Origin: Fibrobacterota bacterium
GTDB taxonomy: Bacteria; Fibrobacterota; Fibrobacteria; UBA11236
Length of the DNA: 64,000 nt
Direction: 5' to 3'
Assembly: GCA_947466585.1 (NCBI GenBank)
Contig: CANIEU010000001.1
Location: 48,414 to 112,413, forward strand
Positions 2,799-59,221 of this stretch are shown in pieces. Under the pieces are notes generated by a model, which was given only the letters and a program-made list of their open reading frames with translations, was not told the origin of the DNA and did not search any database. Position numbers and translations under genes: made by a program. Positions within the stretch are counted from its first letter, which is position 1, and the number at the start of each line of letters is the position of its first letter.

Positions 2799-4157
2799 AT
2801 GTCCAACACACCCTCTAAATTGATGCGCTCTGTCTCGGGGATCCGCGGCATTGTCGGCCCCGATTTCAATCCCGTCCTCATCGCGAAATACGTCAACGCC
2901 TTCGTCCAGATCACCGGCGCCAAGCGGGTGGTGGTGGGTCGCGACACCCGGCCCACGGGTTTGATGGTGGAGGGCTGCGTGGCCGCCGCGTTGCAGGCTG
3001 CCGGCGCCGAAGCGGTGCTGCTCGGCGTAGCATCGACCCCGACGGTGGAAATGGAAGTGGTGCGGCACAAGGCCGACGCCGGCATCATCGTCACCGCCTC
3101 GCACAATCCGCTGGAGTGGAACGCGCTGAAGTTCCTCGACCGCGAAGGGATTTTTCTCGACGAAGCCGCTGTGCAAAAACTCTTCGCACTCGTGGACGGC
3201 GATGCGATGGTGTGGCTCGATCACGCCGGGACCGGCCGCGTGTCGAGCGAGTCGGGAGCCGATGCGGCCCACATCGCTGCCCTACTGGCCCTGCCCTGCA
3301 TCGATGCGGAGGCGATTCGCGTGCGCGGCTTCAAGGTGGCCTATGACGCGGTGAACGGTGCCGGCAGCCTGATCGTGCCCGATCTTCTGCGCGCGTTGGG
3401 CTGCGAGGTATGCGCCATCCATGTGACTCCCGACGGGATCTTTCCGCACGGCGCGGAACCCACGCCCGAGAATCTGGCCGACTTGGGACGCGCGGTGCGC
3501 GAGAACGGTTGCGATATCGGTTTCGCCACCGACCCAGATGCGGACCGCTGCGCGCTGGTGAACGAGCGCGGCGAGGCCGTGGGCGAAGAGTACACGCTCG
3601 CCTTGGCGGTGGATTCGTACCTGCGGCGCAATCCCGGGCCGGTGACGGTGAATCTCTCGACGAGCCGGATGAGTGCGGACCTCGCGGCGCGGCACGGGGT
3701 GCCCTTCGCGCGCGGCAAGGTGGGCGAGATCAATGTGACCATGGAAATGAAGCGCAACGGGAGCGTGATCGGCGGCGAAGGCAATGGCGGGGTGATTTTG
3801 CCCGACCTGCATTACGGCCGCGACGGTATTCTGGCCGTGGCGATGATTTTGCAGTCGATGGCGGAGCGGAACCTGCCGGTTTCGGCCCTGATCGCGGGAA
3901 TTCCCGCCTATCACATCGACAAGCGCAAATTCGAACTGGGATCGACCTCCCTCCCCGATGTGTATGCCCGGCTCGAAAAAACCTTTTCCGGAGCAGAAAT
4001 GGATCGGCGCGACGGCCTGTGGTTCGGCTGGGAGACGGATCGGAGCTGGGTGCATGTTCGCCCCTCGAACACGGAACCGGTGATTCGAGCCATTGCCGAG
4101 GCCCCCACGGCGGCCGAAGCCGCCCGTTTGTGCGAAGCTGTGGCGGCATTGCTCTAG
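2799..4157 (+). CDS. glmM: Phosphoglucosamine mutase (alpha-D-phosphohexomutase family)
   Basis: SGIRGIVG N-terminus, active-site TASHNP loop, directly upstream of glmS. Confidence 0.8.
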   Translation: MSNTPSKLMRSVSGIRGIVGPDFNPVLIAKYVNAFVQITGAKRVVVGRDTRPTGLMVEGCVAAALQAAGAEAVLLGVASTPTVEMEVVRHKADAGIIVTASHNPLEWNALKFLDREGIFLDEAAVQKLFALVDGDAMVWLDHAGTGRVSSESGADAAHIAALLALPCIDAEAIRVRGFKVAYDAVNGAGSLIVPDLLRALGCEVCAIHVTPDGIFPHGAEPTPENLADLGRAVRENGCDIGFATDPDADRCALVNERGEAVGEEYTLALAVDSYLRRNPGPVTVNLSTSRMSADLAARHGVPFARGKVGEINVTMEMKRNGSVIGGEGNGGVILPDLHYGRDGILAVAMILQSMAERNLPVSALIAGIPAYHIDKRKFELGSTSLPDVYARLEKTFSGAEMDRRDGLWFGWETDRSWVHVRPSNTEPVIRAIAEAPTAAEAARLCEAVAALL

Positions 4158-4260: not shown

Positions 4261-6087
4261 ATGTGCGGAATTGTAGCCTACACGGGAAAATGCCAAGCGG
4301 TCGGCATCCTCATCGAGGGGCTCCGGAAGCTGGAGTACCGCGGCTATGACAGCGCGGGAGTCTGCCTCCAAGACGGCGGCAAGCTGACCACGATTCGCGC
4401 CAAAGGACGGCTTTCGGAACTGGAAGCGGCCCTGCACGGACGGCCCAAGCTGGGCACCACGGGCATCGCCCACACGCGCTGGGCCACGCACGGCGCTCCG
4501 TCCGAGAAAAACGCCCACCCCCACATGAGCATGAACGGCGAATTCGCGGTGGTGCACAACGGCATCATCGAGAACTACGCCTTGATCAAGGCCGGCTTAC
4601 AGGCCGAGGGCGTGGTGTTTCAATCGGAGACCGACACCGAAGTGATCGCGCATCTGGTTGCGAAGCTTTACAAAGACAGCCTCGCACAGGCCGTTGCCGA
4701 TACGTTGGCACACCTCGAAGGCGCGTTCGGCATCGTAGTGATTTCGGCGCGCGAACCCGGCGTGCTGATCGGCGCGCGGCGCGGTAGCCCGCTGGTGCTC
4801 GGCGTGGGCGAAAGCGAATGCATTTTGGCATCGGACGCCTCCGCCATTGTGGAGCACACGCAAAAAGTCGTGTACCTCGATGAGAACGACATGGTGGAGA
4901 TCAATGGCGGCGAGTACCGCATCACCAACCAGGCGCGCGCCGAAGTGCGCCGCGAGATCCAGAACATCGGGTTCAGCGCGGATCAGGTGGCCAAGGGCAG
5001 CTTCGAGCATTTCATGCTGAAGGAGATTTTCGAGCAACCCGAGGCGGTGATCAATTCATTGCGCGGCCGCCTGCTGCTCGACTCGGGCACCGCCAATCTG
5101 CAGGGTCTCAACCTAGTGCAGCAGGAATTACGCGGCATCAAGCGCATCATCATCATCGCCTGCGGCACGTCGTTTTATGCCGGCAAGGTGGGCGAATATC
5201 TGATCGAGGAACTGGCGGGCATTCCGGTGGAAGTCGAGTACGCTTCTGAATTCCGCTACCGCAACCCGATTCTCGAGGAGAAGACCATCGTGTTCGCGGT
5301 CTCGCAATCTGGCGAAACCGCCGATACGCTGGCGGCGCTCCGCGAAGCCAAGCGCAAGGGCGCGACCGTGCTGGGCATCTGCAACGCAGTGGGCAGCTCC
5401 ATCGCCCGCGAGACCGACGGCGGCGTCTACCTACACGCGGGTCCCGAGATCGGCGTGGCCTCCACCAAGGCTTTCACCTGCCAGGTCACTGTGCTGACCT
5501 TGATCGCGTTGTTGCTCGGCCGTATGCGGCGGGTCAGCGCGGACGAAGGCCTCCGCATCTGCAAGGCCTTGCAGGCCATTCCCGGACAGATCCGCGAGAT
5601 CCTCGCGCAGAACGATCAGATCCGTGAAATCGCGAAGCAGTACGTCGACAACCGCAACTTCCTGTATCTCGGCCGCGGGTTCAACTACCCGGTCGCGCTC
5701 GAAGGCGCGCTCAAGCTCAAGGAAATCTCGTACGTGCACGCGGAAGGTTACCCTGCCGCGGAAATGAAGCACGGTCCCATTGCCCTGATCGACGCCGACA
5801 TGCCCACGGTGGTGGTCTGCCCCACCGATGCCCTCTTCGACAAGGTGATTTCAAACATGCAGGAGGTGAAGGCGCGCGGCGGGCGCATTCTCGCGGTGAC
5901 CGACTCCGAAAACGGACATCTCGACGGCATCGCCGACCACGTGATCCGCGTACCGAAAACGTTGGCGCCGCTCACGCCGCTGCTGCACGTGGTTCCGCTG
6001 CAACTGCTCGCCTACCACATCGCCGTGCTGCGCGGTTGCGACGTCGACATGCCAAGGAATTTGGCGAAAAGCGTGACGGTTGAGTGA
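4261..6087 (+). CDS. glmS: Glutamine--fructose-6-phosphate aminotransferase
   Basis: MCGIVAY N-terminal nucleophile, 608 aa with two SIS domains, ends ...DMPRNLAKSVTVE. Confidence 0.95.
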   Translation: MCGIVAYTGKCQAVGILIEGLRKLEYRGYDSAGVCLQDGGKLTTIRAKGRLSELEAALHGRPKLGTTGIAHTRWATHGAPSEKNAHPHMSMNGEFAVVHNGIIENYALIKAGLQAEGVVFQSETDTEVIAHLVAKLYKDSLAQAVADTLAHLEGAFGIVVISAREPGVLIGARRGSPLVLGVGESECILASDASAIVEHTQKVVYLDENDMVEINGGEYRITNQARAEVRREIQNIGFSADQVAKGSFEHFMLKEIFEQPEAVINSLRGRLLLDSGTANLQGLNLVQQELRGIKRIIIIACGTSFYAGKVGEYLIEELAGIPVEVEYASEFRYRNPILEEKTIVFAVSQSGETADTLAALREAKRKGATVLGICNAVGSSIARETDGGVYLHAGPEIGVASTKAFTCQVTVLTLIALLLGRMRRVSADEGLRICKALQAIPGQIREILAQNDQIREIAKQYVDNRNFLYLGRGFNYPVALEGALKLKEISYVHAEGYPAAEMKHGPIALIDADMPTVVVCPTDALFDKVISNMQEVKARGGRILAVTDSENGHLDGIADHVIRVPKTLAPLTPLLHVVPLQLLAYHIAVLRGCDVDMPRNLAKSVTVE

Positions 6088-6112
6088 AATCAGAAATCAG
6101 AAATCAGAAAGA
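6087..6112. repeat. Tandem heptamer (gaaatca)x3 immediately after glmS stop, upstream of scpA
   Basis: gaaatcagaaatcagaaatcagaaag read directly; related reverse-orientation copy at 56475-56504. Confidence 0.6.
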
Positions 6113-6211
6113 AACGCAAAAGTCATTTTTGGCCTTTGAACAGGTTTTGGATTGCCCCATGCTTTCTTCTTCCTTTCATATTTCCAATTTCATATTTCCG
6201 ATTTCCCTCGT

Positions 6212-9012: not shown

Positions 9013-9094
9013 GAGGGAAAGATAGCTGTCAGCTTTCCGTTTTCAGCTTTCAGTCCTCCGCCGTCAACGGGCGGTCCTGCCCTTCGTTGACCGT

Positions 9095-24452: not shown

Positions 24453-24462
24453 AGAGGAGGAT

Positions 24463-24598
24463 GGTTAGTGGGTAGTGGGTAGTGGGTAAGGTAAAGGAGG
24501 TAGATGGATTTAGGTTCAGATTGCTTGAACCAGTGACTGCTGAGATTTGCTTTCGTGAGTTTCCAAATCTGTGTTCCACCTACCTACTACCTACTGAC
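24463..24598. repeat. Palindromic GGTAG-unit element, variant arms (gttagtgggtagtgggtagtgggtaagg ... ccacctacctactacctactgac)
   Basis: Inverted arms around a ggttcagattgcttgaacc central hairpin between Dabb and GT4 genes. Confidence 0.55.
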
Positions 24599-27042: not shown

Positions 27043-27152
27043 GGACGGACGGTAGACGGTAGTAGGTAGACGGTAGAGAAAAAATCGGCAAAAAGGTTAC
27101 CGAACATTCCATTTCTAGTGTTCGCTACCGTCTACCGATTACTGTCTATCTC
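27043..27152. repeat. Palindromic GGTAG-unit element (gacggtagacggtagtaggtagacggtagag ... ctaccgtctaccgattactgtctatc); right arm supplies stop codon of minus-strand gene
   Basis: Inverted arms read directly; fills the whole gap between convergent genes. Confidence 0.65.
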
Positions 27153-34154: not shown

Positions 34155-35342
34155 ATGGCGGGCGATGCAAACACGGACGGCAAAGAGGTTTTGTTCACGA
34201 TCACGCGTGACCACCTCGACACGGGTTTGCGAGGGTTTCCCGTGGGCACCTGTCCCATCAGCGACGTCGATCCGATCAAGGGATTGAGTTATGGCGGTAT
34301 TCCTATCGCCGAACTCGCCCACCTCGATCCGGAAGAGGTCATCCACCTCTTGCTGCGCAAAGAGCTGCCCGACGCGGCCAAGCTAGCCGTGTTCCACGGC
34401 GAACTGCTGGGCCAAGGTCCGCTGAATCCCGGTGTGCTCAAGTTGCTCGAGAGCTTCCCCCGCAAAGGCCATCCGATGAAATGGCTGCTCGGCGGTTTGG
34501 TGGCGATGGGCATGTTCGAAAACGCGGGGGATTACCGCAAGGATTGCCTGCGCGTGATCGCGCAATTGCCCGAACTCGTGGCGGCGATCTTTCGTATCCG
34601 CTCGGGCTGGGGCGCGCCGATCGCTCCGAAACCCGAATTGGGCTGGGTGGAGAATTTCGTGCACATGCTCGGCGCACCCGGCGCATCGCCCGATCTCACG
34701 CGGCTGTTGCGCGTGTTCATGATTCTGCACTTCGACCACGGCGGCGGCAACCTTTCGACCTTCGTGGGCAAGGCCGTGGCCTCGGGCCACGAAGACATGT
34801 ATGGATCGCTGGCCGGCGCCATGGCCGGCCTCGCGGGCCCGTTGCACGGTATGGCCAACCAGGAGTGCCTGCGCTTCGTGAAGGAAGTCGCTGCGGAGAT
34901 CAAGGATCCCACCGATCTTGAAGAAGTCAGCAAGTATGTGGAGAACCGTCTCGCCACCGGCGGCGTGCTGTTCGGCTTCGGCCACGCGGTGCTCCGCGTC
35001 GAAGATCCGCGCGCGACAGTGCAGTACGCCCTCGGCGAAGAAATCGCCCAGAACGATGGTCTGTTCCGCCTCGCAGTTTCGCTGCGCACTGCGGGAGTCG
35101 AAGCTCTGAAGAAGCGCCCGAAGGTCAGTAATCCGTATCCGAACGTCGACGCCGTGTCGGGGACGTTGCTGAACGCCTGCGGCCTGACCGACGAGACGTA
35201 CTATACGGTGCTATTCGGCTTGTCGCGCTGCGTAGGCATTGCGTCGCAGATCGTGTGGGAACGCACCGAGGCGCGGGGTGGCAAGGGAATGCCCATCGTA
35301 CGGCCGAAGTATGTGTACACCGGGCCTGCGGTTAAGGGGTGA
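34155..35342 (+). CDS. gltA: Citrate synthase (small, about 395 aa type)
   Basis: GPLHGMANQE and HGGGN active-site motifs; start MAGDANTDGKEV. Confidence 0.9.
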   Translation: MAGDANTDGKEVLFTITRDHLDTGLRGFPVGTCPISDVDPIKGLSYGGIPIAELAHLDPEEVIHLLLRKELPDAAKLAVFHGELLGQGPLNPGVLKLLESFPRKGHPMKWLLGGLVAMGMFENAGDYRKDCLRVIAQLPELVAAIFRIRSGWGAPIAPKPELGWVENFVHMLGAPGASPDLTRLLRVFMILHFDHGGGNLSTFVGKAVASGHEDMYGSLAGAMAGLAGPLHGMANQECLRFVKEVAAEIKDPTDLEEVSKYVENRLATGGVLFGFGHAVLRVEDPRATVQYALGEEIAQNDGLFRLAVSLRTAGVEALKKRPKVSNPYPNVDAVSGTLLNACGLTDETYYTVLFGLSRCVGIASQIVWERTEARGGKGMPIVRPKYVYTGPAVKG

Positions 35343-35498
35343 TTTTTAAGGAAATGGGTGTTTGGAAGGGGCTCTCGGAAGGGGGCCCTTTCTTTTTAGT
35401 CAGAATTCCGCGAGGTTCCGTTACGAGGTTTACGTCCTGGATATTGGGGTTCTATAATGGGAGCAATGCAATTCAGCGGAAAGGTTTAAGGTCCTAAT

Positions 35499-36053
35499 AT
35501 GACTAAGCAAATAGTCTTCCTTGGAATCCTGATTTTATCTCTCCTCAGCCTTTCAAATGCTGGGCAAAATACGGTTAGCCAAAGCGGAGCAACTGTTGAG
35601 AAATGGAAGTCCTTAGAAAACTGGCGAATGTTAAGGAATGACATGGGTCAGAAAAGTGTGAGAAAAATATTGGGGGAGCCAGAACGTATCAATGGCGGAG
35701 TAGTAGCTTTTTGGAACTATCCAAATGGCGGCGACGTTACCTTCATGGATGGCAAAGTGTCTGGATGGAGTGAGCCACTTAGATGGGATGAGGGATCAGG
35801 AAACGCCTCCTCATCAGATATTGATCCAGATAAATTAGTGCTAGGAATTTTACTGGTTGCGATTCTCTTCTATTTTACACCGATTCTGTGGGTGTTGTTT
35901 TCCAGCCGTTCAACTGGTGGGGCTAAATTCGGTTGGTTCCTTATAACCATTGTGTTTTCTTGGTTAGGATTCGCAGCCTTTTTGATTTTGACGCAAACGG
36001 CAAAGGCCCGTAAGCAATTAGAATCGAAAACATACGGAGGACAAAGTGAGTAG
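35499..36053 (+). CDS. Secreted/membrane protein: BamE (SmpA/OmlA)-like domain plus C-terminal two-TM PLDc_N-like segment
   Basis: Signal peptide; W.L..GM....V...LG.P..I...W.Y..GG.V.F.....V.GW.EP pattern; C-terminal ILFYFTPILWVLF...FGWFLITIVFSWLGFAAFLI. Confidence 0.5.
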   Translation: MTKQIVFLGILILSLLSLSNAGQNTVSQSGATVEKWKSLENWRMLRNDMGQKSVRKILGEPERINGGVVAFWNYPNGGDVTFMDGKVSGWSEPLRWDEGSGNASSSDIDPDKLVLGILLVAILFYFTPILWVLFSSRSTGGAKFGWFLITIVFSWLGFAAFLILTQTAKARKQLESKTYGGQSE

Positions 36054-36405
36054 ATATCATTTCGCAATTTTGATTTCGCTCCTTGTGTCAGCAACCCAAG
36101 CATCTTCACAAACCAGCTACGATTCCATGTCGCAACAGCTTGAAGAGAAGATCATATTACTTGAAAAACGGATTTCCACAATTGAAGATCAATTGAGGGA
36201 AGGGAAAGCACCGATTCAAGCTCCTCCGGGAAAAGCGAGCTGGCGACAGCTTAAAAAGGGCATGTCTGAGGCCGAAGTCGAAGGATTGCTAGGCAGCCCT
36301 GCCAAGATTGAAAATTATGGATCCTTCAGTATTTGGAACTATCAGAAGGGTGGTTCTGTTCAATTCAACGAGGACGCATTAGTCAAAGGTTGGTTCGAGC
36401 CCTGA
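36046..36405 (+). CDS. Secreted BamE-like protein, paralog of preceding ORF, with coiled-coil N-region
   Basis: Signal peptide MSRYHFAILISLLVSATQASSQ; shares the W..L..GM..EV..LLG.P..I...W.Y.GG.V.F....V.GW.EP pattern with 35499..36053. Confidence 0.5.
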   Translation: MSRYHFAILISLLVSATQASSQTSYDSMSQQLEEKIILLEKRISTIEDQLREGKAPIQAPPGKASWRQLKKGMSEAEVEGLLGSPAKIENYGSFSIWNYQKGGSVQFNEDALVKGWFEP

Positions 36406-36430
36406 CTCAAATTCTCTTACGCTATGACTT

Positions 36431-36593
36431 CGGTCTGATGTATGAGACGTACCACACGATGCTGTTCGGCCTGTTGCGCTGCGTGGGCATTGCGTCGCAG
36501 ATCGTGTGGGAACTCACCGAGGCGCGGGGTGACAAGGGAATGCCCATCGTGCGGCCGAAGTACGTGTACACGTGGCCGGCTGTAAAGGGGTGA
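36431..36593 (+). pseudogene. Duplicated 3' fragment of the citrate synthase gene (last roughly 50 codons) with its downstream sequence
   Basis: Translation ...YHTMLFGLLRCVGIASQIVWELTEARGDKGMPIVRPKYVYTWPAVKG closely matches citrate synthase C-terminus; similarity continues about 90 nt past the stop. Confidence 0.7.
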
Positions 36594-36893
36594 TTTTTAC
36601 AGGAAATTGGTGTGTGGAAGGGGCTCCTAGAAGGGGGCCCTTTCCTTTTTAGTCAGAGTTTTTAGAGTCCCCGTGAAGGGGTTTACGAAGTAAGAGCCTA
36701 GGTTTATACTAAAGCTCGTTCACCTAACGACTGAGGCATTTAATCTGCAGTGCTAGTCAAGGTTATTACCACTAGACCAATTTCTGGCCAGATAACCCCG
36801 TAAACACAAATTATCAAAGGCGCCCATCCAATTTGTTGGTTTCGGCCATATGGCAAACCCTACAACTACTCAGAATATGACAGGCAGGCGGAA

Positions 36894-37808
36894 TTGATGA
36901 AGGCAATACAGATATATAAGCCTGGCTATCTCTATGTACTAGTTCACCCATCTAATCCAAATCTCTATAAGATCGGAGTAACTGTCCTTCAACCTGAGAA
37001 GCGATTGGCCCAGCATAACAATCAACACAACAAATACGCGGGCAAGATCGTCAAAGAGTCGGGTCAAAAATGGGAGCTTAAGGCACACATTTCCGTCCCC
37101 GACCCATATTGGGCTGAAAGTGCCTTTTGGGGAGCTACGCATTTCCCGGAAATTCCTTATCGAAAAGGCATCGAAATCGAAATAATGACTTGGGATTTGG
37201 TGCAAATTGGTTTGGAGGCGGCAAAACAGGCCGGGGTTCGACCAACCCCAGCGTCTTACCCTGATTATGTGTATGCCTATACGGCGTCAGTCCAAAAACG
37301 ACTGGAAGGCAGAGGCATTTCCCTCTTAGGATACGTGCGAAGCATGGTGAGCGGAAGATCCGATTTCCGATGCGAAAATGGACACGAATGGCACACGACT
37401 CCTAAACTCGTAGCTGATGGAGAGGGTTGTCCCATTTGTGGGATTGGCACACAGAGTTTAACAGAGATCAGAGAGCGTATTAAGGCCGGCGTTATATTCT
37501 TACTGACACATGAAGGTAGGCCTGGATATTTTAAAATTGGGCTGCATTTAGGCGCTATCGAAAATGCTTTCCAAAACTGGCCTTTTGGCGATTGGCAGTG
37601 TCATCGTTATAGGAATGTGGAGGAAGTCGAACTAGCCATTACAGTTATTTGGGAGTTACTAGGATTGCCTCTTCCCCATGACCAAGAAGCATTCATGATG
37701 GATAAAAAGGAAGCGGAAAAAGCTTTCAGAGATTTGACTTACGTTATCCAGGAACGGACTGCCGCCACCGGGAGGGTCAAAGAGAAACCCAATGACTCCA
37801 ATCGCTAA
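36894..37808 (+). CDS. Tandem T5orf172/MUG113-type GIY-YIG-superfamily protein with an internal zinc ribbon
   Basis: GYLYVLVHPSNPNLYKIGVTVLQPEKRLAQHN matches T5orf172 N-terminal consensus; degenerate repeat GVIFLLTHEGRPGYFKIGLH; CENGHEWHTT...CPICG between them. Confidence 0.55.
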   Translation: MMKAIQIYKPGYLYVLVHPSNPNLYKIGVTVLQPEKRLAQHNNQHNKYAGKIVKESGQKWELKAHISVPDPYWAESAFWGATHFPEIPYRKGIEIEIMTWDLVQIGLEAAKQAGVRPTPASYPDYVYAYTASVQKRLEGRGISLLGYVRSMVSGRSDFRCENGHEWHTTPKLVADGEGCPICGIGTQSLTEIRERIKAGVIFLLTHEGRPGYFKIGLHLGAIENAFQNWPFGDWQCHRYRNVEEVELAITVIWELLGLPLPHDQEAFMMDKKEAEKAFRDLTYVIQERTAATGRVKEKPNDSNR

Positions 37809-39526: not shown

Positions 39527-40786
39527 TTGCGGACATGGGCTACCTTTCCCTCGATGCCCCCCGCCTCGAAATCAGAAGTCCATCCCGCCCGCACCGAATC
39601 TCCAGTATGGGGTGCAGGCTGGGTGATGTTCCTCAGCTTCGCAGGCCTCTCCGCAACGCAGTTCCACGGCTACCTCTTTGAAGGCAAAGGCTTCTCGCCC
39701 TTGCAGATCGGCTTCCTGCTCGGTGCCGGATACGCCGCAGGGCTGCTCGCACCGGCCGTGCAGGTCAACGCCATCCGCCGCCTGCGGGGCCCGCGCATCC
39801 CGCTCGCCATCGTGCTCGCCGGGGCCGGCACCGCCATGGCCCTGTTGCCGTGGGCCAACCACTTCGGCTCCGTGCTCTTCCTGTTTTTCTGCACCCTGTT
39901 TTGCTCCGCGGGCATCCACCCCCTCACCGCCGCCTGCGCGCTCGAGGCCACGCGCACGCGCGGGCAGGGCACCTACTTCTTGATCCGCAGCCTCGGCACA
40001 GCGGGATTTTTAGCGGGATGCATCGCCAGTTTCTTTCAGCCGGGCGTCGACAAACTGCCGTGGTTGTACTTCGGATTCGGCGCGGCCTTTTGGTGCACCA
40101 TTCCCCTTGCGCTCAACCGTTTTCGCCCGAGCGATCCGCGTCAAGCGCCCGAAGACATCCTCGTCACGCCGCTCCCGCGCCGCACTCCCGGATTCGGCCG
40201 CGCGTTGCGCCTGCTCTCCGCCCCGCGCGCCAAGCGTTTGTTATGGACGCTCGGTGTGATGAATTTCGCCAACGCCATGGCCACCCTGGTGCAAGGCAAC
40301 TATCTCGTCTCGCGTTTCGACGGCGGGCAAAGTTCCATCAGCTTCGCATGGATCGTGGCGACCACGGTGGAGATACCGCTGATGTTTTTATGCGCCTGGA
40401 TGGTGCGTCGCTTCGGCCTGCGCACCGTGATCGGATTCGGGCTGCTCGGCACCACCATCAAGCTGGCATTGCTTGGAGCGGCCGACAGTTACGGCGTGTT
40501 TCTCGCCGGACTGGCCTTCCACGGCTGTTTCTTCTCGGGCGCGCTCGTGGGATTCAATCTCTTCATCGACAAACATTTCGCCATCGCCGATCGCCCTTCG
40601 TTGCAATCGCTGGGCGCTCTCTTTTATACCGGATTGCCCTCGGCATTCGGCGGACTCACCGCAGGGGTGCTCTGGCACTTCTTCGGCTTGCGCTCGGTGT
40701 ACGTGTTCACGGCGCTGGTGGCGATCGGGGCGGGAGCGTACACGCTCAGGCTGCTGCCGATGCTGCCGGGACGGGAGAGACGGTAG
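39527..40786 (+). CDS. MFS transporter (12 TM); start may be downstream; last codons and stop lie in repeat arm
   Basis: multi-TM hydrophobic profile across 419 aa. Confidence 0.7.
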   Translation: MRTWATFPSMPPASKSEVHPARTESPVWGAGWVMFLSFAGLSATQFHGYLFEGKGFSPLQIGFLLGAGYAAGLLAPAVQVNAIRRLRGPRIPLAIVLAGAGTAMALLPWANHFGSVLFLFFCTLFCSAGIHPLTAACALEATRTRGQGTYFLIRSLGTAGFLAGCIASFFQPGVDKLPWLYFGFGAAFWCTIPLALNRFRPSDPRQAPEDILVTPLPRRTPGFGRALRLLSAPRAKRLLWTLGVMNFANAMATLVQGNYLVSRFDGGQSSISFAWIVATTVEIPLMFLCAWMVRRFGLRTVIGFGLLGTTIKLALLGAADSYGVFLAGLAFHGCFFSGALVGFNLFIDKHFAIADRPSLQSLGALFYTGLPSAFGGLTAGVLWHFFGLRSVYVFTALVAIGAGAYTLRLLPMLPGRERR

Positions 40787-40888
40787 ACGTTAGTAGGTGG
40801 ACGGTAGAGAACTCCGAATAAGAAATTTTGAAACCAAGTACAAGTTGATGCGCTTTGTTTTTGCTACCGTCTACCGACTACCGTCTCT
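40775..40888. repeat. Palindromic GGTAG-unit element (gagagacggtagacgttagtaggtggacggtagag ... ctaccgtctaccgactaccgtctc); both arms supply stop codons to the convergent flanking genes
   Basis: TAG of MFS gene at 40784-40786 and TAG (minus) of ArsC-like gene at 40880-40878 both lie in the arms. Confidence 0.65.
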
Positions 40889-41240
40889 TTGACCAAGTTC
40901 TTCCGAACAACACCTCGTCAAACCCCACCGTCGCGCTTTTACCATCTGTGACCAAGGGACGCTTGATCAGGCGACCGTTGCCCGCCAAAAGGTCGAACGC
41001 AGCCGCGTCCGTCATGCTGCCGATCTTGTCCTTAATGCCCAAGAGCTTGTATTGCTCACCGCTGGTGTTGAACAACTTGCGCAGCGGCAACCCGGATTGC
41101 TCCAGAATCTTTTTCAATTCCATTTTGGAGGGCGGGGTTTCGGTGATGTCCGCAAAACCGTACGAGACTCCGGCGGTCTCCAGTGCCTTTTCTGCCTTGC
41201 GGCAGGTCGAACATTTCTTGTAGCCGTAGAATTTGAGCAT
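40878..41240 (-). CDS. ArsC/Spx-family (glutaredoxin-like arsenate reductase-related) protein
   Basis: MLKFYGYKKCSTCRKAEKALETAG CxxC N-terminus typical of ArsC/Spx/YffB family; C-terminal part of ORF 40878..41870. Confidence 0.75.
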   Translation of the reverse strand: MLKFYGYKKCSTCRKAEKALETAGVSYGFADITETPPSKMELKKILEQSGLPLRKLFNTSGEQYKLLGIKDKIGSMTDAAAFDLLAGNGRLIKRPLVTDGKSATVGFDEVLFGRTWSKRR

Positions 41241-41290
41241 CGGAGAAAAAGTAGTAGGTAGACGGTAGTAGGTAGTAGGTAGATGAAAGC
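41241..41290. repeat. Partial/degenerate GGTAG-unit repeat (gtagtaggtagacggtagtaggtagtaggtagatg), same-orientation units only
   Basis: read directly, adjacent to ArsC-like start. Confidence 0.4.
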
Positions 41291-41389
41291 AAAAAGTCGG
41301 AAGCTGAGGCTGAAAGGCCGAAGTCCGCCGAAGGCGGGTCGGTAGTCGGAAGTGTGAGAACGGGCGGTCGGAAAATATTTCTTCAAACC

Positions 41390-41405
41390 TGTGACCGTAG
41401 TCACA
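41390..41405. promoter_or_regulatory. Inverted repeat TGTGAC-cgta-GTCACA upstream of radC-like gene (candidate operator), followed by tacaat -10-like hexamer
   Basis: read directly. Confidence 0.3.
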
Positions 41406-41571
41406 CAAGCGGGCAGCGGAACGGTCGCCCCTCGTGTACAATGCCGTCATGAACGACAGCACACCCATTCCGTACACACTCCCCAAGCTCCTTCCTGCGC
41501 CCCTTCCCGAACCTCTGCCGCCGGCACCGACGCCGACCGAACCGCGCCCACCCGACTCCACTTGCACCTCG

Positions 41572-42252
41572 ATGCTGAAAAGCCTGGAATCCCATCTGTG
41601 GCCGCGCGAAAAAATGGGGCGAGAGGGCGCCGAAGCCCTGTCGAACCAGGAATTGCTGGCCGTGCTGTTCGGCCGCGGCCAAAGGGGCAAGGACGTGCTC
41701 GCACTCGCGGGCGAAGTCACTCTGTACCTTGAACGCGTCACCGAACCGCCTACCCTCCACGACCTCTGCCGCATCCACGGCATCGGCCACGGCAAGGCCT
41801 GCCAGATTCTCGCCGCGCTCGAGCTCTCGCGCCGCTTCCTGACGCGACGCCATCGCATCCGCATCCGCAAAGCGTCCGACGCCCTTCCCTACCTCGGCTC
41901 GTTGCGCGGGCGCCGGCAAGAATGCTTCGCCGTGCTCACGCTCGACGGCAACCATCAGGTGATCCGCGCGCACGAGATCACCATCGGGCTCGCGAACCAA
42001 AGCCAGGTGCACCCGCGAGAAACCTTCGCCTGCGCGGTGGAAGATCGTGCCGTTGGGATTCTGGCCGCGCACAACCATCCCAGCGGCTCGCTCGATCCTT
42101 CTGCCGAAGACCTCGTCTCCACACGTCGGCTCGCCGAAGCCGGACGACTGCTCGGCATTCCCTTGCTCGACCACCTGATCGTCACCGCGGAGGGGTTCAC
42201 TTCTTTGCGGGAGAGATTTCCGGATTATTTCGTGGGGGCGAGAGGGTGGTGA
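41572..42252 (+). CDS. radC: RadC-like JAB/MPN-domain protein (UPF0758); alternative upstream start at 41434
   Basis: LWPREKMGREGAEALSNQELLAVLFGRGQRGKDVLALA helix-hairpin-helix N-region and HNHPSGSLDPSAED JAB zinc motif. Confidence 0.75.
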   Translation: MLKSLESHLWPREKMGREGAEALSNQELLAVLFGRGQRGKDVLALAGEVTLYLERVTEPPTLHDLCRIHGIGHGKACQILAALELSRRFLTRRHRIRIRKASDALPYLGSLRGRRQECFAVLTLDGNHQVIRAHEITIGLANQSQVHPRETFACAVEDRAVGILAAHNHPSGSLDPSAEDLVSTRRLAEAGRLLGIPLLDHLIVTAEGFTSLRERFPDYFVGARGW

Positions 42253-42256
42253 CCAA

Positions 42257-42752
42257 CGGACGGTAGACGGTAGTAGGTAGACGGTAGAGAACCCATCTGG
42301 AGAACTTATGTCAACGACAAAGGGATACAGGCAATTAATTGTCTGGCAGAAGGCAATGGAAATGATTCCCGAAGTTTACCGTATCATCCGTGTGCTTCCA
42401 AAAGAAGAGCGATTTGGAATGGCTGAACAAATGCGAAGAGCAGCAGTTTCAGTTGTAGCCAACATGGCCGAAGGCCAAGGCAGAAACGGAAAACGGGATT
42501 TTGCTCACTTCCTCGACATCTCTCAAGGGAGCCTCTCTGAATTGGATACCCTCCTTTCAATCGCAATACAGCTGGAGTACGTGCCCGAAACTACCACCAA
42601 AGCCGTTTCGGAAAAACTCGTGGAAGTTCGGAAATTATTGTTCGGGCTTCTTAATAAGCTCAGAACGTCTTAGAATAATGAACCCCCATTTTTCTGAGTT
42701 TCCCCGATTTTCGTCTTCTCTACCGTCTACCTACTACCGTCTACCGTCTATC
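42257..42752. mobile_element. Expanded palindromic GGTAG-unit element carrying a four-helix-bundle protein gene as cargo
   Basis: Left arm cggacggtagacggtagtaggtagacggtagagaac (42257-42292) and right arm tctctaccgtctacctactaccgtctaccgtctatc (42716-42752) match arms of the empty copies at 27043 and 40775. Confidence 0.55.
42308..42673 (+). CDS. Four-helix-bundle protein of the 23S rRNA intervening-sequence protein family (Avd-like)
   Basis: 121 aa; QLIVWQKAMEMIPEVYRIIRVLPKEERFGMAEQMRRAAVSVVANMAEGQGRNGKRDFAHFLDISQGSLSELDTLLSIA is characteristic of this family. Confidence 0.75.
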   Translation: MSTTKGYRQLIVWQKAMEMIPEVYRIIRVLPKEERFGMAEQMRRAAVSVVANMAEGQGRNGKRDFAHFLDISQGSLSELDTLLSIAIQLEYVPETTTKAVSEKLVEVRKLLFGLLNKLRTS

Positions 42753-43136: not shown

Positions 43137-43284
43137 GCCTACCTCGCGGTGTGTTCCTCCCTCTCCCTCTGGAAGAGGGCCGGGGTGAGGGCTGCGGCAA
43201 CGACAGAAGCGCGGTAAGCCAATACGGAACGCGTGGCCCCAAGCGCCCCCCGACTTGCTAATTTTACACCCTTTCTTTCTTACC

Positions 43285-55900: not shown

Positions 55901-56410
55901 ATGGACGGCGGTTTCATTTCCTTGGCTTCCAGTCTCGAACGCGAGACCTTGGAGCGGCTTGAGAAGTATCTCTCGAGCCGTGGCACGCCGTGTTGGGTGG
56001 GCGCCACCGGAGAGGACTCCGACCGCTTCGCGCTCTTCGTGCATGAGGCCGATGCCGGAACCGCCCGCCGGGTGCTGCAGGATATCGTCCTCCCCGAAAG
56101 CGCGGAAGAACCGGCCGAGGAAGTGGTCGAGATTCGGTGCAATCCCGAAGAACGCGACGCCATCGCCTCCTGGCTGCAATCCCTGCTCGAAGAGCAGGAC
56201 GAAGAGGGCACCCAGGTCTTTTTCTATCGCGGGCATTACGAGCAAGCGCTCGATGCGCTGTTGGCGGAATCGCGTGCTGAAATTCCCGTGTTTCTGCTGC
56301 GCGGTTTGCACGCCTTCCTTCCCGAAGAATCGCGCCGCTTGATGATGAGCCCCGCCCTGCGGGAATTTTTCGAACTCATCGATGTGGTGAGCGAAGAAAA
56401 TGATGAATGA
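55901..56410 (+). CDS. Acidic hypothetical protein
   Basis: ORF 55748..56410 frame from MDGGFISL; no family recognised. Confidence 0.35.
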   Translation: MDGGFISLASSLERETLERLEKYLSSRGTPCWVGATGEDSDRFALFVHEADAGTARRVLQDIVLPESAEEPAEEVVEIRCNPEERDAIASWLQSLLEEQDEEGTQVFFYRGHYEQALDALLAESRAEIPVFLLRGLHAFLPEESRRLMMSPALREFFELIDVVSEENDE

Positions 56411-56474
56411 GAAATGGGCATCGAGTTCATTCCCTGACCTCCATCGCTCTTTTCATTAACTCCCTATTTTCCGT

Positions 56475-56504
56475 TCTGATTTCTCATTTCTCATTTCTGA
56501 AATT
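56475..56504. repeat. Tandem heptamers tctgatttctcatttctcatttctg, reverse-orientation relative of the 6087-6112 repeat, just upstream of a + strand gene
   Basis: read directly. Confidence 0.55.
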
Positions 56505-56509
56505 CCCCC

Positions 56510-59221
56510 ATGCTGACTTCCTTCGTCGCCGTCGATACCGAAACCACGGGCCTCGATTTCGAACACGATCACGTGATTGAACTGGCGGCAGTGCGCTTTG
56601 AAAACGGAAAGCCCGTCGCCGACTTCACCGCCCTGATCGCTCCCGGCGACCGCGCGCTCTCGCCGGTATCGCGCCTGATCACCGGACTCACCGATGCGGA
56701 ACTGGATACCGCCCCGCCGGCCGAAGAGACCTGGCGCGCCTTCCTCGCCTTCGTCGGCGAAACGCCGCTCGTGGCGCACAACGCGGAGTTCGACGCGCAT
56801 TTCGTCGGCAAGTCGCTCACGGCCGCCGGGCTTCCCCTGCCGCCGGGCGTGTGGGTGGATTCGCTGCTGCTCACACGCGTCGCTTGGCCGATGTGGGACA
56901 GCCACCGCCTCGATTCGCTGGCCGAACGCTTGCAGGTTCCCCGCGACGCCGAGCATCGCGCCCTCCCCGACGCCCGCCGTGCGGGGTATGTTTTCGACGC
57001 CGCCCAACACGCACTGCGCAACCACCTGTCGCCACAGGGTTGGAGCGACCTTACCCGCCTTGCAGAGACTCTTCCCGATTGGTGCACCGTGTTCCACGGC
57101 GCCAGCCCTTCCGAAGGCGCGTCTCCGGTAGGAGAGCATGACCGGCCCCAGGGTGTTCCATCCGCGCCGTTTGCAGAGGATACCGATGCAGGCGTGAGCG
57201 CAGGGGCGGAAGATGCGGACGAAGCCCTCGCGGACGCACTGCAACACGAAGGTTGGTTGGCGCTTGAGATTCCGCCGCGCGTGGAAGAACATGCCGCGGG
57301 CCTGCGCGCGGCATGCGCCGCCGCGAAAACCGGACAACGCGTGTTACTCGCAGTCCCCGATCTGTTTGCCTGGAATGCGCTGCGGAAATCCCTCGCATCC
57401 CTCACATCCTTTTCAACCGAATTGCAAAATGTTCGCTGCGTCGCGCTGGCTCATCCTTCGGGATATCTCAGTCGCACCCGCCTGCGGGAGCTCCTCGACG
57501 ATCCCGCACGCATCCCGGCCGAAGAACGCGCCGCCCTGCTGCCTCTGGTAGCCTGGGCCGACCGCAATCCCGATGGACCGGTTGCGGACGGGCGGGGGTT
57601 CTCACCCGAACGCGCGCGCCTCACCTGGTCTCGGGTTTGTTGCGACACCTGGGCAGACGACGCCTCCGCCCGCAACGCGCGCGAGGAGGCGGCGCATGCC
57701 GGTGTGATTCTGGTCACGCATGCCACGCTTTGTGCCCACCTCGCTTCAGAAGGCGCGCTGTTGCCGGCTTGCGACTCGCTGATCGTGACGGGCGCGCACC
57801 GTTTGCCCGAAACCCTCCAGTCTCCCGCCGGGGCCGGGCGCGCGGTCTCGCTGTCGCGCTTGCGTGAAATATTGCAGATGCTGCGCGCGGCGCCGGAGAG
57901 TGCTACTGTCAGCACTTCGGACGGTGCAGCGAACGGTGATGCCTGGTTCGAGCCCGAACGACAGCTGCTGAAGTTTCTTCAGAACGCCGGACGTCACGCC
58001 ATGCGGCAACGACCGCACGGCGACTTCCGTGTGGCCTACACCGAGCCGGCGCTCGCGGCTTTGGGTGCCGACCCAACGCCGGTGCTGGAAGCCTTGCAGG
58101 CCGACCTTGACTATCTGTCGAATCCTGTCACCGCCACAACCACCGGAATGCCTGAAGAGGCCGCGAGAGCGGAACGGCAACGCCTAAGCGCACGTTTGGC
58201 TGCGTTCCGCAACGACTTCGCGGCGTTGTGCGAAGCGGCCCGGCACGCGTTTGCCAGCGGTACGGGCTCGACCGGAAACGTCTATTGGATGGAGGACGGA
58301 TCCAATCCGCCCAAAGCCTCGTTACGATCGGCGCCGGTATCCGGTGAGCTCTTCGGCGAGACGCTGCGCGGGCTGTTCGGTGCTGGGGTCTTCCTTTCCC
58401 CCGCCCTGATCGCGGGCACGCATCCTGCGCGCGATGCGCGCTTCGTGCTGGAAGCGATCGGGATTGCGGTATCGGGACACGAAACGGATTCCCAGGATGC
58501 GCCGCTCGTTGTGCGCCGCATTTCTGACCGCACGCTGCAAGACGGCGCACCACATTTCCTGATGACGCCCGGTGCTCCGTTTTTAGGGACCGGCGAACAG
58601 GCCGAAGAGTTCGCGCGTTTTTTCGCCGAGGCGGCGCTTCCGTTCACGGCACAGGGCGTGCGCGTATTCTGCCCTTCGCAAACCGCTCTGCGCGCTCTCT
58701 ATGGTGCGCTCCGGCGACTCGTTCCCGAAGGTACGCCTTTGTGGGCGCAGCATCTCGATGGCAACCGCGACGCGATTCTGAGACTTTATGCTTCGGGGCG
58801 CGGCGGCATCGTGCTGACCGCAGAAGGGCTTCCCGGTTTGCGCGACCTCGACGGCAAGGAGCCCGCACTGTGGGCCGTGACGCGCATGCCCTTGCCGCCG
58901 CCGCGCGATCCTTTGCTCGAGGCGCGCGGCGAGGCGCTGTGCGAAGCGGGAGGAAACGCAAAACTTGATCTGTGGCAACCCGCCGCGATTCTGCGCCTCA
59001 AGCGAGACTGGTCCGTTTTCCGCAGCGCGGAAGCCACCGAAGGGACGAAGGTCATTTGGTTGCTCGACGGGCGCGCCGCGGCAGAAGGCCTCGGCAGCCG
59101 CTTTGCCGGGGCGCTGGGCCTCGAAGCGGTTGCCCCGAAAGACCTTGCGGATTTGCAGACGCGCACCGCCGAAGCGGTGCCCGGATCGGCTTTTCGACCC
59201 CTCTCCCAAGGGTTATCTTGA
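56510..59221 (+). CDS. dinG: DnaQ-like DEDDh 3'-5' exonuclease domain fused to a DinG/Rad3-like helicase-related domain with degenerate ATPase motifs
   Basis: Exo I FVAVDTETTGLDFEHDHVIELAAV, Exo II VAHNAEFDAHFV; downstream LIVTGAHRLPE in place of DEAH box and no GxGKT Walker A. Confidence 0.6.
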   Translation: MLTSFVAVDTETTGLDFEHDHVIELAAVRFENGKPVADFTALIAPGDRALSPVSRLITGLTDAELDTAPPAEETWRAFLAFVGETPLVAHNAEFDAHFVGKSLTAAGLPLPPGVWVDSLLLTRVAWPMWDSHRLDSLAERLQVPRDAEHRALPDARRAGYVFDAAQHALRNHLSPQGWSDLTRLAETLPDWCTVFHGASPSEGASPVGEHDRPQGVPSAPFAEDTDAGVSAGAEDADEALADALQHEGWLALEIPPRVEEHAAGLRAACAAAKTGQRVLLAVPDLFAWNALRKSLASLTSFSTELQNVRCVALAHPSGYLSRTRLRELLDDPARIPAEERAALLPLVAWADRNPDGPVADGRGFSPERARLTWSRVCCDTWADDASARNAREEAAHAGVILVTHATLCAHLASEGALLPACDSLIVTGAHRLPETLQSPAGAGRAVSLSRLREILQMLRAAPESATVSTSDGAANGDAWFEPERQLLKFLQNAGRHAMRQRPHGDFRVAYTEPALAALGADPTPVLEALQADLDYLSNPVTATTTGMPEEAARAERQRLSARLAAFRNDFAALCEAARHAFASGTGSTGNVYWMEDGSNPPKASLRSAPVSGELFGETLRGLFGAGVFLSPALIAGTHPARDARFVLEAIGIAVSGHETDSQDAPLVVRRISDRTLQDGAPHFLMTPGAPFLGTGEQAEEFARFFAEAALPFTAQGVRVFCPSQTALRALYGALRRLVPEGTPLWAQHLDGNRDAILRLYASGRGGIVLTAEGLPGLRDLDGKEPALWAVTRMPLPPPRDPLLEARGEALCEAGGNAKLDLWQPAAILRLKRDWSVFRSAEATEGTKVIWLLDGRAAAEGLGSRFAGALGLEAVAPKDLADLQTRTAEAVPGSAFRPLSQGLS

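Follow-up and report, generated by a model that had tools for sequence, protein, structure and literature searches.

The repetitive extragenic palindromic (REP) sequences of enterobacteria, together with the bacterial interspersed mosaic elements (BIME), are abundant extragenic palindromes located at gene ends, which form RNA hairpins and are tied to REP-associated tyrosine transposases (RAYT). Liang, Rudd and Deutscher are said to have found in 2015 that REPs located at most ~15 nt from a stop codon hold up ribosomes during termination and reduce expression. The Correia/NEMIS (Neisseria miniature insertion sequences) elements of Neisseria and the Rickettsia palindromic elements are miniature transposable elements with inverted repeats (MITEs), able to give coding or stop sequence to their neighbors. 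The present analysis concerns element C, a hairpin repeat of ~113 bases at positions 40775-40888 of a 64,000-nucleotide stretch of contig CANIEU010000001.1 from a Fibrobacterota bacterium (the window, to which all coordinates refer unless a relative is named). It lies between two convergent genes, coding for a major facilitator superfamily (MFS) transporter and an ArsC-like protein, and the stop codons of both are found within its arms. The interpretation favored here, with a probability of roughly 0.6, is that element C belongs, as a member devoid of a gene, to a family of hairpin cassettes with heptamer-built arms, whose full-length member, cassette E, carries the gene of a '23S rRNA intervening-sequence protein' (IVP).

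Heptamer repeats and intervening sequences

REP arms are not built of tandem heptamers, and the locus studied here has a four-helix bundle as its protein partner; among the annotated neighbors no RAYT was noticed, in a window that was not scanned exhaustively for such genes. With the Correia/NEMIS and Rickettsia elements, element C shares being small, multi-copy and devoid of an open reading frame (ORF), as well as its inverted termini. It differs from them in that its arms are internally periodic, the stops are native, and no target-site duplication was found, nor, in the window, any cognate insertion sequence bearing a transposase.

The intervening sequence (IVS) of the Coxiella 23S rRNA has a 28-bp stem of terminal repeats that contain tandem GACAGAT heptamers, harbors an S23p ORF in its loop, and is cut by RNase III in vitro at the first repeat (PMC4990558). 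IVSs with S23p ORFs are found in the 23S rRNA of Coxiella burnetii and also of Leptospira and Xanthomonas (PMC4990558). The locus resembles them in the ~30-bp stem of terminal inverted repeats, a long stem of this kind being present in both C and E, in the tandem heptamers and, for E, in the PF05635 ORF located in the loop. Unlike them, C and E are inserted between protein-coding genes (MFS/arsC and radC/crcB, respectively) and not in helix 25 or 45 of 23S rRNA, and C lacks the ORF; at gathering thresholds, no Rfam family, and hence no rRNA, was detected anywhere in the window.

In Xanthomonas, inverted pairs of GGGAATC heptamer arrays are present in intergenic regions in many copies per genome (Rehm et al. 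2015, PMC4692102). The repeat type is, as a rule, retained among related species, with variation in length; G-quadruplexes were proposed for them, no link to S23p/IVP was made, and overlap with stop codons was not a subject of that study (PMC4692102). Element C likewise has convergent tandem heptamer arrays on opposite strands of one intergenic region, but its unit differs in sequence and is not prone to form G-quadruplexes. The short tandemly repeated repetitive (STRR) heptanucleotides of cyanobacteria and the TAACTGA repeats of Beggiatoaceae are also intergenic and often lie a few nt from start codons (PMC4679880); they are mostly direct arrays and not hairpin pairs, and no IVP link has been described for them. 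Heptamer-armed hairpins and IVS-type cassettes are a known kind of element, to which element C belongs; its tie to IVP genes outside rRNA appears to be under-described in the searchable literature.

Element C and cassette E

The left arm of element C (40775..40809, plus strand) is made of five tandem heptamers, GAGAGAC GGTAGAC GTTAGTA GGTGGAC GGTAGAG, and is followed by a loop of 54 nt (40810..40863) and by the right arm (40864..40888, plus strand), CTACCGT CTACCGA CTACCGT CTCT, so that both arms are arrays of the form GGTAGNN. The loop contains no ORF and is not clearly homologous to those of the other copies. Two pairings of the arms were reported by the repeat finder, 40776-40798 with 40866-40888 (83% complementary) and 40785-40807 with 40864-40886 (87% complementary). 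The stem, imperfect and of ~30 bp, folds on both strands, with -46.9 kcal/mol (z -4.0) on one and -42.3 kcal/mol (z -4.5) on the other.

The MFS gene (39527..40786, plus strand, from the ORF list and Pfam; gene callers place its start at 39626) ends ...CTG CCG GGA CGG GAG AGA CGG TAG, its stop being the TAG at 40784-40786 in the left arm. The ArsC/Spx-family gene (40878..41240, minus strand, 120 aa, start ATG at 41240; Pfam ArsC, E 7.5e-19) ends ...TCA AAG AGA CGG TAG, with its stop in the right arm, where the plus strand reads CTA at 40878-40880. Read along the plus strand, the TAG of the MFS gene is followed by ACGTTAGTAGGTGGACGGTAGAGAAC, the loop, GCTACCGTCTACCGA, and then CTA CCG TCT CTT TGA CCA. 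Both genes thus end in AGA CGG TAG, in an identical register of the arm, and as the paired arms span both stops, the two codons are placed inside the stem. The sequence, the ORF list and the repeat finder all agree with the original prediction on this point. It had also been proposed that GGTAG units give immediate stops, and TAG-bearing heptamers do quickly close incoming frames. However, since each unit carries TAG and seven is not a multiple of three, a stop in an arm that abuts a coding region is nearly automatic, and the two stops together are therefore no independent coincidence.

Cassette E (42258..42749, plus strand) is found between the radC stop and the crcB start (42762), the radC TGA at 42250-52 lying 5 nt before the arm, as had been stated. 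Its stem is perfect over 34 bp (42258-42291 / 42716-42749), is composed of GGTAGAC/GGTAGTA heptamers and encloses the IVP gene, and the whole folds with a dG of -181 kcal/mol (z -6.4). The IVP gene (42308..42673, plus strand) encodes a four-helix-bundle protein of 121 aa, which matches PF05635 (E 9.5e-36), TIGR02436 'four helix bundle protein' and PDB 2GSC (E 1.7e-23). The GC content at its third codon positions (GC3) is 0.48 vs 0.72-0.84 in the neighboring genes, a foreign composition.

Other copies in the window

The sequence GGTAGNNGGTAG, with at most one mismatch, occurs 24 times in the window vs 0.91 expected, and these matches group in five clusters, A to E, those of A spanning 24462-24595 and those of E 42257-42752. 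Two co-directional genes of the minus strand flank copy A (24463..24598, plus strand), which has the unit GGGTAGT and no ORF; a stop codon precedes it by 12 nt, and a start codon follows it after 10 nt. Copy B (27043..27152, plus strand), also ORF-less, separates two convergent genes: its left arm begins directly after the TAA at 27040-42, and the fourth, degenerate unit of its right arm, CTATCTC, contains the stop of a CrtC/AttH-like gene, which places the minus-strand stop at 27146-27148 in the arm, as had been noted. Copy D (41250..41352, plus strand) is a GGTAG heptamer array in the divergent arsC/radC gap, with arrays in one orientation only, no complementary arm and no hairpin fold (z -0.7). 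Copies A, B and C, in turn, fold as long hairpins on both strands (z -3.2 to -6.7). At three unlinked sites of this one genome (B, C and E), arms of 30-35 nt are nearly identical, GGTAGAC GGTAGTA GGTAGAC GGTAGAG, and so are the inner edges, which have GAGAA in common. From these shared arms, A, B and C are probably all gene-less members of the cassette family.

The strong hairpins on both strands would also suit a bidirectional terminator or an mRNA-stabilizing hairpin selected by the host and evolved in place, its heptamers arising from slippage, with no mobility and no relation to IVP. In many bacteria, long simple repeats are most often heptamer arrays, whose copy number varies (PMC4679880, PMC4990558), and native gene ends such as ..CGG TAG are already unit-like. 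This explanation is nevertheless unlikely: it does not account for near-identical arms and inner edges at unlinked sites, nor for copy D, which has no partner arm and does not fold, and it leaves aside the strong statistical tie of periodic arms to IVP genes described below.

Further intergenic elements with periodic inverted arms, devoid of the GGTAG unit, are present at 6084-6208, 2168-2238, 56400-56510 and 9024-9053, the last one (AGCTTTC) being a less clear case; the other units seen at these sites are GAAATCA (7-mer), CAATGGAA/CAATAGAG (8-mer) and GAAATGA. The first unit of the element at 6084-6208 overlaps the upstream TGA, and the element ends 5 nt before the next ATG; the one at 56400-56510 is located between divergent genes, and its end falls 4 nt short of an ATG. 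A hidden Markov model of IVP proteins detected a single IVP gene in the window, and these other unit families have no local IVP partner.

Three independent short-read assemblies of the same organism (L122-L124) break within the D array, at window 41273-41280. Heptamer arrays therefore fragment assemblies, and they are probably under-represented in metagenome-assembled genomes (MAGs).

Generality of the IVP cassette

Periodic inverted arms, with a period of 7 or 8 nt, were found at 37 of 63 metagenome IVP genes, these being the IVP homologues with enough flank, whereas 0 of 42 control genes from these contigs had them (Fisher p 2e-11). On viral contigs, they were present at 35 of 47 IVP genes. 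Unit sequences vary widely among the cassettes. Examples from named lineages come from Gemmatimonadota (L054) and Peregrinibacteria (L056), with further loci at L101 and L014, and inverted heptamer pairs without an ORF are found in Thermomicrobiales and Campylobacteraceae MAGs. A contig scan for four consecutive GGTAGNN units gave an adjacent IVP detectable by tblastn at 2 of 120 loci, among the matches listed, the pattern being too degenerate and matching heptamer arrays from many phyla.

Several regularities of the arms may be recorded here. The heptamer units of the 5' arm carry AG on the IVP sense strand in 31 of 31 clean ones, where 19.8 are expected (L128-L207, L216-L267); the unit has a loose consensus AG-T-G-N-N-C/T, the 5' arm is 65% purine, and ~10% of the cassettes have an 8-nt period instead. 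As for stops, arms with stops in at least two frames numbered 31 and 24 when reading inward and 15 and 17 when reading outward in 42 IVP cassettes, with ~49% of random tiled heptamers having stops as the baseline; the enrichment is only modest, and no claim is made that stops are a designed feature of the arms.

A broader hypothesis, which is put forward tentatively and with the odds somewhat against it, is that S23p/IVP genes across bacteria and viruses travel in cassettes armed with tandem AG-containing heptamers, which shed gene-less hairpins that settle in intergenic gaps, directly against start and stop codons. On this view, classical 23S rRNA IVSs would be cassettes of this sort, with or without the gene, that landed in rRNA, and the unit would turn over in each lineage in step between cassette and hairpins. 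Such concerted turnover would imply an active mechanism of propagation or homogenization, possibly involving IVP itself. The repeat identity ties together the intergenic heptamer hairpins, the widespread and functionless-looking "four helix bundle / S23p" genes, and the 35-year-old puzzle of the origin of rRNA IVSs, three subjects treated separately in the literature found. Should this tie be real, the origin and spread of IVSs could be tested in ordinary intergenic DNA.

Origin of the stop codons

The position of both stops in the arms could be explained by a MITE that targets gene 3' ends or terminators and whose TAG-rich arms replaced the native ends, supplying both stops. The original prediction had proposed along these lines that C-termini are remodeled, for example by an element-encoded PGRERR tail of the MFS protein. 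C-type copies are indeed short, non-coding and present several times, and their termini are inverted repeats; within the window, though, the one longer element that has such termini encodes IVP and not a transposase. The evidence from relatives makes this explanation quite improbable.

The closest relative, L212 (MFS 91% and ArsC 87% identical), has no element between the two genes. Its empty site reads TAA-AAAAACGC-CTA, with a gap of 8 nt, and its MFS and ArsC proteins have exactly the same lengths as those in the window. The ArsC gene of L212 closes with the four codons AAG GGG CGC TAG and that of the window with AAG AGA CGG TAG, which agree at 9 of 12 nt. In the ArsC family, the conserved core ends at W116 and tails vary, but the close clade shares tails of 3-4 residues with a final K or R (SKRR in the window, KKGR in L212, GGRR in L126, GSKR in L127 and KKK in L125), each followed by a TAG stop.

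In the MFS family, conservation extends to ..LLPMLPG[RK] and the sequence is variable afterwards. Only 9 of 21 nt of the last seven codons, stop included, are shared with L212, and tails vary widely among orthologues past PG[RK], which the MITE explanation would predict. The five tail residues differ from the AKNAH of L212, which in turn departs from the rest of the family. The same stop position is found in several orthologues that lack GGTAG arms, e.g. L208, which ends ..GGA CGG TAA. As to the PGRERR tail, PGR is family sequence conserved across MFS orthologues, and at most ERR overlaps the arm.

At copy B, the ending ...F[ST]MVKR of the CrtC/AttH-like protein and its stop position are kept in more than 50 orthologues, down to ~50% identity. 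L213 and L214 keep AAG AGG TAG, followed by different, unrelated repeats: arms of the 8-mer CAATAGAG in L213 and a C-rich palindrome in L214. When C-termini are compared with those of orthologues without the element, identical final residues and stop positions are therefore found for copy B and nearly so for ArsC, and the stop position only for MFS. The MITE explanation is, on these alignments, largely refuted for copy B and ArsC. The element-free locus of L212, the alignments of the tails and the conserved MVKR ending lead to the conclusion that the stops are, as far as sequence comparison can tell, native, and that the outermost arm unit coincides with them. What looks like a repeat supplying stops is mostly ordinary, the repeat nesting against existing ends, and with equal protein lengths and a homologous ArsC tail, the proposed remodeling of C-termini is largely unsupported at these loci.

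Remodeling does find support elsewhere, where stop-free arms are read as tails. In L125, the MFS tail ..KHHNNKTSQQ is translated from arms of the 8-mer CAACATCA, and in L127 the MFS ORF continues across the (GTCGGGG)n arm that belongs to an IVP cassette. The C-terminal extension in L127 is likely to be repeat-encoded or spurious, judging from its sequence. Such a long read-through tail is not formed in the window because the GGTAG-type unit contains TAG. If the link to the IVP cassette is real, annotators would gain a rule to recognize spurious C-terminal extensions, namely that stop-free arms are read through. The L127 MFS ORF (458-1732) was also seen to overlap the 3' end of the convergent IVP gene (1706-2071) by 27 nt.

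Among relatives of the flanking proteins, names were available only for Fibrobacterota/Fibrobacteria MAGs, with identities of ~50-66%. No strain polymorphism was detected in this uncultured bacterium, as all other contigs with an identical ArsC protein are 100% identical to the window.

Position and turnover among relatives

The flanks of the five GGTAG-type copies (n=10) comprise 6 gene 3' ends and 4 gene 5' ends, and elements of the sister families are found next to start codons or within a divergent gap. A preference for, or targeting of, gene 3' ends, as had been suggested, is thus not sustained, which also weakens the MITE explanation. The elements occupy entire intergenic gaps.

In L126 (ArsC 78% identical), the synteny crcB-IVP-radC-arsC-MFS is kept and elements are present in all three gaps, an IVP cassette and two ORF-less elements all having the unit GGGTACT. 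This sharing of a unit between the cassette and the ORF-less elements supports the link between cassette and short copies. In L125, the arsC/MFS gap holds an 8-mer element; in L127, IVP lies beside radC with unit GTCGGGG; and in L212 there is no element in the arsC/radC gap either, copy D being absent. The presence of elements at the same three intergenic sites in L126, and the flush fit of the arms against start and stop codons, are what a host-selected hairpin would predict. Relatives, however, have different units at one and the same site, and in L212 nothing is present there, which suits turnover and not conservation. Recurring positions, lineage-specific units and the sharing of units within a genome fit better, from sequence comparison, with turnover of a propagating family than with static conservation.

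The end of arsC in L126 (4352-4375) reads GGT CGA CGG TAG GAGAAGAC, like one GGTAG-type unit followed by the GAGAA inner edge, and the GGGTACT-type element starts directly after it. By its sequence, this end may be the remnant of an older, replaced element of the GGTAG type.

Downstream of radC (41434-42252), an IVP cassette follows immediately in three relatives with ArsC 73-100% identical. The IVP and radC coordinates are 2526-2768 / 2898-3797 in L126, where IVP is truncated to 80 aa, and 1706-2071 / 2161-2892 in L127; the neighbor on the far side and the arm unit (GGTAGAC, GGGTACT or GTCGGGG) differ. The arrangement may reflect a conserved linkage or an insertion hot spot.

Proposed role at the RNA level

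According to the proposed model, the short copy C fills the gap between the native stops of two convergent genes, its outermost unit coinciding with the pre-existing ...CGN TAG ends and its stem reaching ~11 nt into each gene. The length of both proteins is unchanged, with at most 2-3 unconserved tail residues affected. In RNA, an imperfect stem of 30-35 bp would be formed at the 3' end of both convergent transcripts, where it could block read-through and exonucleases and/or be cut by RNase III, on the model of rRNA IVSs. The stop codon at the base of the stem may slow terminating ribosomes, as REP biology would suggest. Copies would spread or be replaced by copy-and-paste or recombination linked to the IVP cassette. 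By the same analogy, the short copies probably act as RNA 3'-end or RNase III structures.

Several observations weigh against assigning element C to the IVP cassette family or against a role of this kind. About 40% of the IVP genes have no arms by the criteria applied. The loops of A, B and C show no convincing homology to the interior of E, and the link rests on arms of ~35 nt. Neither a target-site duplication nor a transposase or other mobility enzyme was identified, which is also a point against a MITE; the empty and filled sites of L212 and the window show no direct duplication, their flanks being too diverged to define junctions. The empty site of L212 could be a secondary deletion, as L125 and L126 have (different) elements there. 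We know of no catalytic activity for IVP, a small helical bundle. There is no U-tract, and a terminator scan gave no intrinsic-terminator match at element C, the plus-strand tail being TCTCTTTGACC and the minus-strand tail CTCTCCCGTCC; the suggestion of terminator-like elements thus finds no support here from an intrinsic-terminator signature, and a host-selected terminator is disfavored by the same lack of a U-tract. Finally, metagenomic cassettes show no consistent bias for G-U wobble pairs (56 sense vs 83 antisense, if anything reversed), and selection at the RNA level is unproven.

The absence of a strand-specific wobble bias would agree with an action at the DNA level, as a cruciform, as a protein-binding array (e.g. 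for the pentameric IVP) or as a signal for recombination or replication. The AG conserved in every unit, the purine-rich arms on one strand and the one-sided array of copy D could be read in the same way. Among the mismatches of the three ORF-less copies of the window, however, 6 form G-U pairs on the plus strand and 0 do so on the minus strand, a count too small to build on, and the sole experimental precedent, cleavage by RNase III, is at the RNA level (PMC4990558). An action at the DNA level is considered highly improbable.

Other features of the window

The divergent arsC/radC gap also contains the palindrome TGTGACCGTAGTCACA (41390-41405), which is kept in L212 (GTGACCGTCGTCAC, ~4321-4336) and L126 (GTGACGGCGGTCAC, ~3841-3856) and, by its sequence, looks like a putative operator for a dimeric regulator. 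A stretch of low GC3 (35499-37808), with ORF values of 0.43-0.45 and one gene with a weak T5orf172 match, harbors a 214-nt repeat, whose copies at 35193-35404 and 36444-36657 are 89% identical; the stretch probably represents a foreign island. Downstream of crcB (43150-43200) there is a palindromic repeat, C-rich/G-rich in sequence (CCTCCCTCTCCCTCTGGAAGAGGGCCGGGGTGAGGG), and in L214/L215 the gap that follows the CrtC-like gene is occupied by a related element (L214 3565-3665). Read-through of C-rich/G-rich repeats gives tails of the '...PLSQRERG' type in some MFS orthologues (P0146).

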